NCBI RefSeq assembly: GCF_030384885.1
Contig: NZ_CP128613.1
DNA: 64,000 nucleotides
DNA from: Escherichia coli
GTDB lineage: Bacteria; Pseudomonadota; Gammaproteobacteria; Enterobacterales; Enterobacteriaceae
Direction: 5' to 3' (one strand)
Below are positions 14,828-20,582 of this stretch, one piece after another (within the stretch, counting starts at the first letter, position 1; the number at the start of each line of letters is the position of its first letter). Below the pieces are notes generated by a model that saw nothing but the letters and a program-made list of their open reading frames with translations, had not been told where the DNA came from and did no database searches. The translations under genes and the position numbers were made by a program.

Positions 14828-17800
14828 TTACCACTGAATACCGGCACCGAGTGCGGCGGAGTATTCACCCTGGCTATTGGTACTACCTTGTAATTTGTAG
14901 ACCCAACGACCATTGGCGCTCACCATCGACACACCTAAAGCAACAGCCGATTCGCCGTTGTAAGTACCACCACCAATAGAGGCCATGCTGGCTCCCGGCG
15001 TGTAAGCCTGCGGCAGACCGGTCATTGCCATTGCGGAAGCGATACCACCGCTCAACTTGCTTTCGGTTTTGGACAGTTTGTTATCCATCTCAACCATGCG
15101 CTGATCGGTGTATTGCTTCGTTTCCTGCACACTTTGCTTCAACTGTGCATAGTTCACTGCGTCGTTGTTGTTCACGCCCGCAGAAACGTTGCTGATGCGA
15201 GTCGTACCGCCATTGCCGCCACCGAGAGTGATGTTGCTGTAGTCGATAGAGCCATCAGCTTTGGTGTCGTAGCGAACGCCACCTGCTTCGGAAGACTTCA
15301 GTTGCGAAACGTTAACCGCATCAGTGGCATTAACACCGGCAGCAACGTTGGTGATACGGCGCTGGTTGGTAGAAGAACCCACAGAGATTGTGTTTTCTTC
15401 GTTGGCCACGGAGCCTGTACCCAGAGCGACGCTGTTGTCAGCGGCAGCAATGGATCCAGAACCAATCGCCACACTGTCTTTACCCTGGGCGTTAGCATCT
15501 ACGCCATCGGTGTTGGTCTTGAAGTACTTGGTGCTACCTGTGGTTACGATATCGCCAATACCGTTCTCGATATTGGTCACGCGAGTATCCAGATTCGTCA
15601 CCTGATTGTTCAGGTTAGTAATGCTCTGGGTATTCTGGGAAACCTGCGCATCCGTTACTTTCAATTGACCCACGTTGACCGCATCGGTATCAGCCGAACC
15701 AGCCGCGACGTTGGTGATCTGACGTTGACCGTCTTCGCTACCTACGGAGAATTCACCCACAGAGTTCTGCGGTGCATCCATGTTGTAGGCGGTGTAGCCA
15801 GTTTGTGCGCCACGGGTAGTTTGAGAACCATTACCCATTGCAATGCTGTTTGCATGGTTTGCACGCGCGTTGCTACCGATAGCAATACCGTTAATCGCAT
15901 CTGCCAGAACTAAAGTGTTCAGGCCGATACCAATACCTGCATTACCATTAACGATGGTTTTTGCGCCCATTGCCAGCGAGTCTTCACCGACTGCCAGTGA
16001 GCCTTCAGCCGTTGAATTGGCGTGATAGTATTTGGTCGGCGTGGTGGCTACTGCACCAATCGCATTCTGCAACTGGCGAACCGTAACGGCATCATGGGCT
16101 TCAGAACCATCGGCAACATTGATGATTTGACGATATTTACCATCGTCACCGATCGACAATGCGCCAAGCAGTTCACCGTCAGTTGTGTCATAACCAATCA
16201 CAACACCTTCTTCCGACACGCTGGTGTCACGAGAACCTTTAACTATTACACGGCTGGAAACGGAACTGCTACCCAACGCAATACTCGTATCAACGATGCT
16301 GCTGCTGCCCTGACCGATGGCCACGCTGCTATCGCCTTTGGCAACAGAGTTATAACCCACAGCAGTAGAGCCAATGCCTGCTGCGCTGGCATCGGTGAAG
16401 GTTAAACCAGTGTCATTGGTACGCACATAGTTAATGCCCGCACCGTTTTCTTCGATGTAGGTTTCGCTAGTGTTACCGGCAAGCTGATTGATGACTTCGC
16501 TGTTCTGCTGGATCAGCATATTGGTGTTAAACAGCTGAGAACCGTTGATAGCATCGGTGCTACCTTCACCAATGTTACCATCAGCAACGTTTGTGATAAT
16601 GCTGGCCTTGCCGTCATGACTGGCGTTGTAAGCCCCTTCGCCGTTATTGGCGGTCGCATCCCACAGCAGCGCGTTCTCATCAAGCGCATCCAGAGCGTCA
16701 CCGACATTGTTGTACTCGGCATTCGCAATGGTGTAAGTCGGCGCAGTGATAGTACCGTCAGCGTTAACTTCTGCATCACCGCCCAGAGCATCAGCGATAT
16801 ATTTGTTAGTGGTATAGAGTTGTGAGCCGTTAATCGCGTCGCTGCTGGTGGCAGAGATTGCACCATTTGCGACGTTAGTAATCTTACTGGCAGTGTTATC
16901 TACCCCACGACCGGCGCTGAATGCACCAGCACCGTCATTGGCTGTTGCATCCCAGAGCAGGGCGTCATCCAGCGTGGTATCGATCGCTTCCAGTGCGTCA
17001 CCAACGTTGCTGTAACTGCCGCCAGCGATGGCATAAGTCGGTGCGGTGATACTGCCATCCGCATTCACCACAGCGTTCCCGCCCAGAGCATCGGCAATGT
17101 AGTCACTAACGCCATAAAGCTGTGAACCGTTAATAGCGTCACTACTGGTGGACGAGACTGCACCGTTTGCAATATCAGTGATTACACTGGGATCATTATT
17201 AATGCCGTGTTTGGCGCTGAATTTGCCTGCGGTTGTATCCCAGAGCAGAGCATCACCGAGAGAATCACTAAATGAAGTGTTAATCGCAGCCAGAGCATCC
17301 CCGACGTTAGTGTAGTCAGTGCCGCCAATACTATAGGTTGGCCCGGTTAATACACCTGTATCGCTAATATCAGCACCACCACCCAGATAGGACGTGAATG
17401 AATCAGCCAAACCGTAAAGTTGTGAGCCATTTATGGCGTCAGTGCTGTCAGAGGAGACTATGCCAGCTTGTACGTTGCTGATTTTGTTGGTGGCGTTGGT
17501 GCCGTGTGCAGCGGTGAATGCGCCTGCGGCATCGTCCCATTTCAGGGCGTCTTCACCGAGGTTAGTCACCGTATCAGTCAGGTTAGTGATATTGGTGGTG
17601 TTAGTCGCCACGTTATCGTTAGTGGTTTTCAGCTGAGAACCGTTAACGGCGTCGGTGCTGGTGTCAGAGAGTTCGCCAGCGGTGACATTGGTGATTTTGT
17701 TGGTGGCGTTGGTGCCGTGTGCAGCGGTGAATGCGCCTGCGGCGTCGTCCCATTTCAGGGCGTCTTCACTAAGGTCAGTCACCGTATCAGTCAGATTAGT

Positions 17801-19898: not shown

Positions 19899-20582
19899 TT
19901 ATTTTTTGTTTTTTCGCTGCCGGGTTTCAGCAGGTTGAACAGTGTCGAACTGGAGATTAGCCATATTGATGGACAACTTCAGATACTTCAGGTTATTAGG
20001 TGAAACGCCTTTTAATGTCAGATTAATGTCTTGCCATTGACCTGGCATTAATTGCAGGGTGGAGTTCATGGTGGTGTTGAACAGCAGTCGCTGCCACTTT
20101 GCCAGCGCTTTGGCATCGGTGGGTCTTTCATTGCCCCATGTGGCTTGAAAGCCAATATTTGATACGGGAACGCTTAATAGGTTGACCAGCGAAATACGAA
20201 TAACGCTGCCATTTTCAACCGCATCAATAGCCAGCACCCGGCCTGCCAAACCAACCGAGCCATTGTTTAAAATGAAGTATTTTGTTTGTGCTGGGTTAAA
20301 TTCGGTGAAGACAAATTCGTCCTGTTTGTCTTTGACTGCCTTTACTACACCCGCCAGCACTTTAGTGGTGTTTGCAATATTAATTTGTTGATTTTCAATA
20401 ATTTCTATTTTTCTTTTATATTGTTCTTGTTCTTTTTCAAGAATCTCTATTTTACTTTTTTGCAATTCTTGCTGTTTGACAAGATCGTCGATCAGATTCG
20501 CTTTCTCAATATAGTCACACCCAGTCAATACCCAGAGTGGCAATGTTATCAACATGCTTAATAGTGCTTTTTTGATGCTCAT
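19899..20582 (-). CDS. Coiled-coil lipoprotein immediately upstream of the adhesin (SadB-like candidate adhesin export helper)
   Basis: 227 aa; lipobox LTGC with Asp at +2 (inner-membrane retention signal); heptad-rich region QQELQKSKIEILEKEQEQYKRKIEIIENQQ; same strand as and 44 bp upstream of the adhesin gene. Confidence 0.6.
   Translation of the reverse strand: MSIKKALLSMLITLPLWVLTGCDYIEKANLIDDLVKQQELQKSKIEILEKEQEQYKRKIEIIENQQINIANTTKVLAGVVKAVKDKQDEFVFTEFNPAQTKYFILNNGSVGLAGRVLAIDAVENGSVIRISLVNLLSVPVSNIGFQATWGNERPTDAKALAKWQRLLFNTTMNSTLQLMPGQWQDINLTLKGVSPNNLKYLKLSINMANLQFDTVQPAETRQRKNKK

Follow-up and report, generated by a model that had tools for sequence, protein, structure and literature searches.

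Gene order and flanks of the locus

The window, a 64,000-nucleotide stretch of an Escherichia coli chromosome (contig NZ_CP128613.1), carries two intact reading frames on the minus strand between lldP and yibL. The coordinates in the ORF list agree exactly with the preliminary description: a gene for a 1675-aa trimeric autotransporter adhesin (TAA) occupies 14828..19855, and a gene for a 227-aa lipoprotein lies directly upstream on the same strand (19899..20582), with both genes situated between the mtl and lld operons. The flanking genes, also on the minus strand, were identified by NCBIfam matches as lldP (12756..14432; L-lactate permease, 1199 bits) and yibL (21156..21518; YibL, 190.9 bits). 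Because both frames have very strong homologues, namely crystallized SadA and Hia fragments for the adhesin and PDB entry 4C47 for the lipoprotein, we regard them as real genes and not as chance ORFs. From the lipoprotein stop to the adhesin start the minus-strand gap measures 43 nt (19856..19898), a spacing that recurs unchanged in each of the inspected E. coli loci. The order lldD-lldR-lldP-TAA-lipoprotein-yibL-yibT-mtlR is shared by strains in which the adhesin carries the annotation upaG or ehaG, and both frames are intact in all inspected relatives. Two REP-type palindromic elements lie just 3′ of the adhesin stop codon (14709..14795).

The adjacency of lldP and yibL in K-12, as given in the preliminary description, holds for MG1655, in which yibL (b3602) and lldP (b3603) are neighbours 371 bp apart. 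K-12 lacks window positions 14771-21151, a 6.4-kb block that contains both genes, and has 7 unaligned bases instead; the right-hand edge of the deletion (14770/14771) falls between the two REP-type elements at 14709..14795. Of 5426 complete E. coli genomes, 4149 (76%) carried a homologue of the lipoprotein gene, in each case as one copy on the chromosome, and about a quarter had no detectable homologue. The earlier label "accessory" therefore overstates the rarity of the locus.

Presence or absence as a single 6.4-kb block with an AT-rich segment, together with high sequence divergence between alleles, could suggest a genomic island recently acquired between lldP and yibL, as opposed to an ancestral locus that K-12-like strains have lost. 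Yet the same mtl/lld site is occupied in Escherichia, Salmonella and Shigella (Grin et al. 2014, PMC3953254), as it is in that 76% of complete E. coli genomes. Integrase, tRNA genes and flanking direct repeats are all absent from the region. With a G+C content of ~0.50-0.53, the adhesin gene does not stand out from its flanks, and in K-12 the junction, which lies at a REP element, resembles a deletion scar. With no mobility genes, a site conserved across genera and a deletion-like junction, we rejected the island reading as very unlikely. The operon itself is already known: its location, its deletion in K-12, a 44-bp intergenic gap, the Asp at +2 of the lipoprotein and the helper role were all described by Grin et al. 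2014 (PMC3953254). A sadBA-type locus is ordinary in E. coli, and its recognition here has little consequence beyond correct annotation.

A SadB-type lipoprotein

Pfam and NCBIfam assigned the lipoprotein to no family, and its identification therefore rests on a search of PDB sequences. The NCBIfam search found no family, and the Pfam search returned only insignificant coiled-coil noise, with no match to DUF3251 (PF11622) at E ≤ 10. With phmmer, by contrast to these family searches, residues 23-227 aligned without gaps to residues 3-207 of Salmonella SadB (PDB 4C47; E = 3.2e-70), and BLASTP gave 51.7% identity over the full mature protein, the beta domain being better conserved (60%) than the coiled coil (40%). 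A five-sequence SadB profile matched 4C47 with E = 2.1e-112. The preliminary description had named a lack of SadB similarity as evidence that would count against it; similarity is what the search found. On these alignments we identify the 227-aa protein as the orthologue of Salmonella SadB, a name that can confidently replace the labels "DUF3251 domain-containing protein" and "hypothetical protein" often given to the gene in RefSeq.

The protein begins with MSIKKALLSMLITLPLWVLTG|CDY, which we read as a signal peptide and lipobox (20517..20582, minus strand) with the lipobox LTGC, Cys22 and Asp23 at position +2. The Asp at +2 noted earlier can thus be read directly, and an alignment of five SadB sequences, four from E. 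coli alleles and one from Salmonella, shows no variation in the C-D-Y start, in LTLKGVSPNNL or at many other positions. An aspartate in this position is the classical signal by which lipoproteins avoid Lol sorting and stay in the inner membrane, and we infer that the protein is lipidated at Cys22 and located there. The same residue underlies the inner-membrane location predicted for SadB by Grin et al. 2014 (PMC3953254).

Within the coiled-coil part of sadB, Tandem Repeats Finder detected an imperfect duplication (20385..20484, minus strand) with a period of 42 bp and 2.1 copies, corresponding to 14 residues or two heptads (KIEILEKEQEQYKR / KIEIIENQQ...); a KI-x-LLEKQQ duplication is also found in Salmonella SadB. 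Because the alignment to a crystallized trimer is gapless and the 14-residue heptad duplication is conserved, the lipoprotein is probably a trimer whose N-terminal part is a coiled coil and whose C-terminal part is a beta domain.

Identical in sequence to WP_000023347.1, the lipoprotein shares 78% identity with the lipoprotein encoded upstream of upaG, which also has 227 residues, and 67% with that encoded upstream of ehaG. RefSeq names its orthologues either "SadB/YajI family lipoprotein" or "DUF3251 domain-containing protein", and the identical protein still bears the DUF3251 label. Membership in the DUF3251/YajI family nevertheless found no support: besides the missing Pfam match, hhalign of the five-sequence SadB profile against K-12 YajI gave a probability of 5% and a local match of 21 columns, and the YajI structure 2JWY was absent from the matches of that profile in the PDB. 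A paralogy between SadB and YajI, with 14% identity and detectable by HHpred, was described by Grin et al. 2014 (PMC3953254); our five-sequence profile did not reproduce it.

A third allele of the upaG/ehaG adhesin locus

Pfam searches of the adhesin, run as two halves, detected ESPR, YadA_head, YadA_stalk and YadA_anchor domains, the head and stalk domains with many matches each. On the minus strand these place an ESPR at residues 1-48 (19712..19855; PF13018, E = 9.9e-16), an N-terminal YadA-head repeat domain at residues ~109-409 (18629..19531) and a C-terminal YadA-type membrane anchor at residues 1615-1675 (14831..15013; PF03895, E = 2.1e-19). A search of PDB sequences matched the SadA crystal fragments 2YO0 (E = 1.6e-138), 2YO3, 2YNZ, 2YO2, 3ZMF and 2YNY, and residues ~1589-1675 matched the Hia anchors 3EMO, 2GR7 and 2GR8. 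Both hallmarks of a trimeric autotransporter are therefore present, a C-terminal YadA anchor and a head/stalk passenger that follows a signal peptide. Anchors of the YadA type contribute four beta strands per subunit to a 12-stranded trimeric barrel. By domain content and chromosomal position, we assign the adhesin to the trimeric autotransporters (type Vc secretion) as the positional orthologue of UpaG, EhaG and SadA, an orthology that papers citing the original EhaG/UpaG work also state for UpaG and EhaG.

The comparison with known adhesins that the preliminary description had proposed bears out this placement: identity to UpaG is 69-76% and to EhaG 67-70%, and the SadA fragments match with E-values down to that of 2YO0, alongside the SadB identity of the lipoprotein. 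Likeness to Salmonella sadB-sadA had also been suggested, and the gapless 4C47 alignment, the SadA fragment matches and the shared mtl/lld site indicate an orthologous locus and not a mere look-alike. The Salmonella pair (STM3690-STM3691; 4C47) has a lipoprotein of the same length with the same C-D-Y start and 14-residue duplication, and a gap of 44 bp (Grin et al. 2014, PMC3953254) against 43 nt here. It belongs to another species, however, from whose SadB the E. coli lipoprotein diverges by 48%, with only 40% identity in the coiled coil, and SadA has 1461 aa against 1675 aa for the present adhesin, the two differing in their heads and in how many stalk modules they have.

Within E. coli, the UpaG locus has the same site and gene order, and the C-terminal 475 residues of the adhesins are 97-100% identical, whereas identity falls to 23-37% in head residues 101-300. 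EhaG of enterohaemorrhagic E. coli O157:H7 likewise agrees in site and gene order, and the beta domain of its lipoprotein is 81% identical, but EhaG has 1588 aa and the coiled coil of its lipoprotein is only 46% identical. The anchor region is 100% identical to those of UpaG and EhaG; residues 101-300 show 22-44% identity to UpaG, EhaG and the closest other allele, which marks the N-terminal YadA-head domain as the hypervariable part of the protein. Naming the adhesin UpaG or EhaG in the strict sense was rejected at overall identities of 69% and 67% and head identities of 22-42%, and RefSeq calls adhesins of the identical lineage "YadA-like family protein", not UpaG. Because the chromosomal position is the same, we class the adhesin by its sequence as a third allelic type of the upaG/ehaG locus.

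A second variable region is a tandem array with a 213-bp (71-aa) unit (17475..18361, minus strand), which in this assembly comprises 4.2 copies at 95% identity and codes for repeated stalk/neck modules. The repeat motif is found at residues 522, 593, 664 and 735, and near-identical strains carry 4, 5 or 8 copies. Only two features are specific to the window: a rare-lineage allele with a divergent head, and a variable number of 71-aa repeats among close relatives. A speculative proposal, which we think rather doubtful, is that the divergent head (residues ~100-300) confers a ligand specificity unlike that of characterized adhesins and that gain or loss of 71-aa repeats adjusts the distance between the head and the cell surface, with SadB serving all alleles alike. 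Co-evolution of SadB with particular adhesin alleles is disfavoured, as the SadB of the closest allele is 97% identical and its adhesin head only 32-48% identical.

Expression and the proposed helper role

Upstream of the lipoprotein gene, 573 bp extend to yibL (20583..21155, minus strand) with ~33% G+C and no ORF above 41 aa. K-12 lacks this segment; composition windows covering 20250-20999 had a G+C of 0.33. From this composition we presume the segment to be the regulatory region. Its best sigma-70-like promoter match (20784..20813, minus strand), a consensus match only, consists of TTGACA, an 18-nt spacer and TAAAAT (11/12) and lies ~200 nt before the start codon of the lipoprotein gene; promoter-like sites in the region showed no enrichment over shuffled sequence. 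The 43-nt gap contains no terminator-like site, which suggests that the two genes are co-transcribed. Co-transcription of sadBA was likewise only inferred by Grin et al. 2014 (PMC3953254). The sole minus-strand terminator-like site between 14400 and 21600 is a hairpin at 14654..14683 with a 13-bp stem followed by TTTTCTTT, which is likely to form the end of the operon transcript; the hairpin is kept in K-12, where it follows yibL. An Rfam scan of the region gave only sub-threshold matches, including a partial naRNA4 (REP-derived) at 14702-14742.

The AT-richness of the upstream segment also suggests control by H-NS, and it raises the possibility of an intact but effectively silent, H-NS-repressed cryptic locus that acts mainly as a reservoir of antigenic variation. 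A G+C content of ~33% is typical of H-NS targets, repression of upaG by H-NS is reported in papers citing the original EhaG/UpaG work, native expression conditions of sadBA are stated as unknown by Grin et al. 2014 (PMC3953254), and in about one in four complete genomes no homologue of the lipoprotein gene was detected. However, both frames are intact here and in all inspected relatives, and strong conservation of the SadB beta domain and the adhesin anchor argues for purifying selection and hence for use. We consider a cryptic locus possible but unlikely. It concerns regulation and is compatible with an operon orthologous to sadBA.

Observed orthology, gene order, domain architecture, lipobox and chromosomal location tie the 6.4-kb block to sadBA, and we conclude that the operon is very probably the E. 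coli orthologue of Salmonella sadBA at the upaG/ehaG site. In Salmonella, the presence of SadB enhances the display of SadA and its protease resistance (Grin et al. 2014, PMC3953254), and a second, independent study found display of SadA to be about three-fold higher with SadB. Export of SadA in Salmonella does not strictly require SadB, whose absence lowers display but does not abolish it. A 2026 survey found SadB homologues to be restricted to Enterobacterales. Only in the Salmonella pair has a helper function been measured, and by homology the E. coli lipoprotein described here would have the same function. In the literature searched, no test of an E. coli SadB orthologue in the display of UpaG or EhaG was found, and SadB goes unmentioned in the UpaG assembly study PMC5670179.

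That silence in a study of UpaG biogenesis, the export of some SadA without SadB, and the existence of a distant paralogue, YajI, that is unlinked to any autotransporter (Grin et al. 2014, PMC3953254) would fit a general envelope lipoprotein whose gene simply neighbours that of the adhesin, without a specific part in its biogenesis. Such a reading is difficult to reconcile with the joint gain and loss of both genes, which K-12 lacks as one 6.4-kb block, and with an intergenic spacing that is constant in every inspected E. coli locus. Two laboratories have independently measured an effect of SadB on SadA display, and similarity to YajI is barely detectable by hhalign against 52% full-length identity to SadB. 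We consider a mere neighbour very unlikely.

For a sadBA-type operon, transcription of both genes together would probably start in the AT-rich segment upstream of sadB, which H-NS probably silences, and stop at the hairpin at 14654-14683. The lipoprotein would be lipidated at Cys22 and retained at the inner membrane through its Asp at +2; by homology to 4C47, it would assemble into a trimer through its N-terminal coiled coil, with three C-terminal beta domains facing the periplasm. The adhesin would be exported through Sec by means of its extended (ESPR) signal peptide; its anchor would trimerize into a 12-stranded barrel, which the Bam complex would insert into the outer membrane, and the fibre of head and stalk would be threaded outwards to the surface of the cell. 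If it acts as SadB does on SadA, the lipoprotein trimer may engage the three adhesin chains while they are still nascent at the inner membrane, resulting in more, and more intact, displayed adhesin. A comparable arrangement occurs in Acinetobacter, where TpgA, the other helper protein described for a trimeric autotransporter, is a small envelope protein whose gene lies beside that of AtaA and which promotes the surface display of that autotransporter. TpgA is nonetheless unrelated to SadB: it combines a periplasmic BamE-like domain with an OmpA-like peptidoglycan-binding domain, and its place of action is the outer membrane with the peptidoglycan. An inner-membrane coiled-coil trimer, as in SadB, is not what it forms.

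The lipoprotein and the adjacent adhesin

The six-frame ORF list contains a 1675-aa frame at 14828..19855 and a 227-aa frame at 19899..20582, both on the minus strand, matching a preliminary description that had placed an adhesin and lipoprotein pair resembling sadB-sadA between lldP and yibL. On the same strand lie lldD (10793..11983), lldR and lldP (12756..14432; NCBIfam, 1199 bits) to one side, and yibL (21156..21518; NCBIfam, 190.9 bits) and mtlR (22022..22609) to the other; yibT (21802..22011) is on the plus strand, opposite to the adhesin pair. The mechanical lldP ORF (12756-14432, minus) begins with GTG, 7 codons ahead of the annotated start (551 aa), and a mechanical 'mtlD' ORF (22609-24021, minus, 470 aa) runs upstream into REP-derived sequence, annotated mtlD being 1149 nt (382 aa).

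The 227-aa protein begins with MSIKKALLSMLITLPLWVLTG followed by CDY, a typical L-T-G-C lipobox whose cysteine is Cys22, and Asp23 directly after it confirms the proposed Asp at position +2, a residue that predicts inner-membrane localization (Grin et al. 2014, PMC3953254). A PDB sequence search returned a single match, the Salmonella SadB structure 4C47 (E = 3.2e-70; deposited title 'inner membrane lipoprotein'), with residues 23-227 aligning to 3-207 without gaps, and BLASTP identity to SadB was 51.7%. In a five-sequence alignment, conservation centered on the beta domain, which is 60% identical to Salmonella versus 40% in the coiled coil; invariant segments included NGSVI, LVNLLS, LTLKGVSPNNL and the C-D-Y that opens the mature protein. 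The coiled-coil region contains an imperfect 42-bp (14-residue) duplication shared with Salmonella SadB. Judged by these alignments, the lipoprotein is a SadB orthologue.

Among same-site proteins, ours is 100% identical to WP_000023347.1 from strain 2013C-4282 and 97% identical to that of strain 2020CK-00188, with identity falling to 78% for the lipoprotein encoded ahead of an annotated upaG and to 67% for that encoded ahead of ehaG in O157:H7. The latter (L005:8145-8813, in the O157:H7 comparison locus) is annotated at 222 aa with a non-ATG start, and its identity to ours is 27% in the signal peptide, 46% in the coiled coil and 81% in the beta domain. RefSeq names orthologues 'DUF3251 domain-containing protein' or 'SadB/YajI family lipoprotein', and in some genomes only 'hypothetical protein'; the identical protein carries the DUF3251 label, despite the lack of a DUF3251 match at E <= 10 in our Pfam scan. 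An NCBIfam scan assigned no family. YajI is a reported distant paralogue of SadB (Grin et al. 2014, PMC3953254); comparison of K-12 YajI with a shallow lipoprotein profile was not significant.

The 1675-aa protein carries, by Pfam, an ESPR signal peptide (residues 1-48), an extended series of YadA_head repeats (~109-409), many YadA_stalk modules with smaller head inserts between them, and a YadA_anchor (1615-1675). In the PDB it matched SadA fragment 2YO0 (E = 1.6e-138, residues 1258-1523) and further SadA fragments 2YO3, 2YNZ, 2YO2, 3ZMF and 2YNY, while residues 1589-1675 matched the Hia membrane anchor (3EMO, 2GR7). These matches identify it as a trimeric autotransporter of the SadA/UpaG/EhaG group. 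Comparison with the named E. coli adhesins of this chromosomal site gave whole-length identities of 69% to UpaG and 67% to EhaG. The protein diverges in a strongly polar manner: over its last 475 residues identity to UpaG is 97-100%, and over residues 101-300 it is only 22-44% to UpaG, to EhaG and even to the closest other allele. In RefSeq, this allele's products go under 'YadA-like family protein' rather than UpaG or EhaG.

A tandem repeat in the stalk (17475-18361) comprises 4.2 copies of a 213-bp (71-aa) unit. Strains 6409, EC26 and 10R have one extra repeat (5 copies, 1746 aa) and strain 2013C-4282 has four (8 copies, 1959 aa), with identical flanks in each case, reflecting either true stalk-length polymorphism or assembly collapse of repeats.

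Together, the lipoprotein match to 4C47 and the adhesin matches to SadA fragments bear out the likeness to Salmonella sadB-sadA and support reading the pair as a sadBA-type operon, a system that is already known. Reviews treat EhaG, UpaG and SadA as positional orthologues, and a 2026 survey confines SadB homologues to Enterobacterales; agreement with these sources and with Grin et al. 2014 (PMC3953254) indicates that the first reading was right and the finding already published.

Operon signals and proposed mechanism

The lipoprotein and adhesin genes are separated by 43 nt (19856-19898, read from the sequence), compared to 44 bp in Salmonella (Grin et al. 2014, PMC3953254), and this gap holds no terminator-like site. 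Upstream of the lipoprotein gene lie 573 bp of ~33% G+C, with no ORF above 41 aa and a single near-consensus sigma-70 match (20813..20784; TTGACA, 18 nt, TAAAAT). The sole minus-strand terminator-like site within 14400-21600 is a hairpin at 14683..14654, past the adhesin gene and the two REP elements that follow it. This arrangement fits one transcript spanning both genes. Repression of upaG by H-NS, as reported in the literature, would be compatible with the AT-rich leader.

Homology to the published SadB/SadA system suggests that, once exported, the lipoprotein would be lipidated at Cys22 and kept in the inner membrane by Asp +2, trimerizing via its coiled coil with three beta domains facing the periplasm. 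The adhesin, with its ESPR, would use Sec to cross the inner membrane; three anchors would then form a 12-stranded barrel, aided by the Bam complex, and the passenger would be threaded to the exterior. In Salmonella, SadB raises the surface amount and proteinase K resistance of SadA, and a SadB trimer was proposed to hold three nascent chains and help set their register (Grin et al. 2014, PMC3953254); a second laboratory measured ~three-fold higher display with SadB. Our literature search found no measured SadB-type helper effect for any E. coli pair, and a UpaG assembly study (PMC5670179) never names SadB.

The lldP-adhesin intergenic region also contains a full-length but sub-threshold match to the enterobacterial sRNA STnc380 (Rfam; 14585-14692, plus; 31.7 bits versus a gathering score of 60), covering the terminator hairpin and a palindrome, AATTGGCCCTACCAATT (14609-14627). 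A second, similar palindrome, AATTGGCAGTGCCACTT, lies closer to lldP (14482-14500); both presumably resemble the LldR operators in the lldPRD promoter.

Absence from K-12 and allelic diversity

As the preliminary description stated, yibL and lldP are adjacent in K-12 (MG1655 b3602 and b3603, 371 bp apart). BLAST of this intergenic region against the window showed that K-12 lacks a 6381-bp block (14771-21151), with 7 unaligned bases instead; a ~5 kb deletion removing both genes has been described (Grin et al. 2014, PMC3953254). The lldP-side edge falls between the two REP-type palindromes (14709-14795) that closely follow the adhesin stop codon, and the yibL-side edge 4 bp past the yibL stop codon, such that in K-12 the hairpin that here ends the adhesin operon comes after yibL.

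Of 5426 complete E. coli genomes, 4149 carry a homologue of the lipoprotein gene, chromosomal in every case and nearly always single-copy; describing the locus as accessory was thus technically correct but overstated its rarity. Nucleotide identity to the lipoprotein gene of this window was at least 95% in 28 of the 4149, 90-95% in 3, 80-90% in 1373 (the band of the sampled upaG-linked allele, 85.6% identical over the sadB-to-mtlR stretch) and 60-80% in 2745, a band containing ehaG-linked alleles. This distribution points to a highly polymorphic ancestral locus that roughly one in four genomes has lost.

The window is of E. coli origin: both the lld operon (10793-14432) and selAB (33850-37082) have 100% identical counterparts in several complete genomes of this species. 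Only 11 of the 5426 are at least 99% identical at lldPRD or selAB, placing the source strain in a rare lineage. At 90-95% identity, 3648 genomes were recovered for the lld operon versus only 2 for selAB, indicating locally elevated divergence beside the polymorphic adhesin locus.
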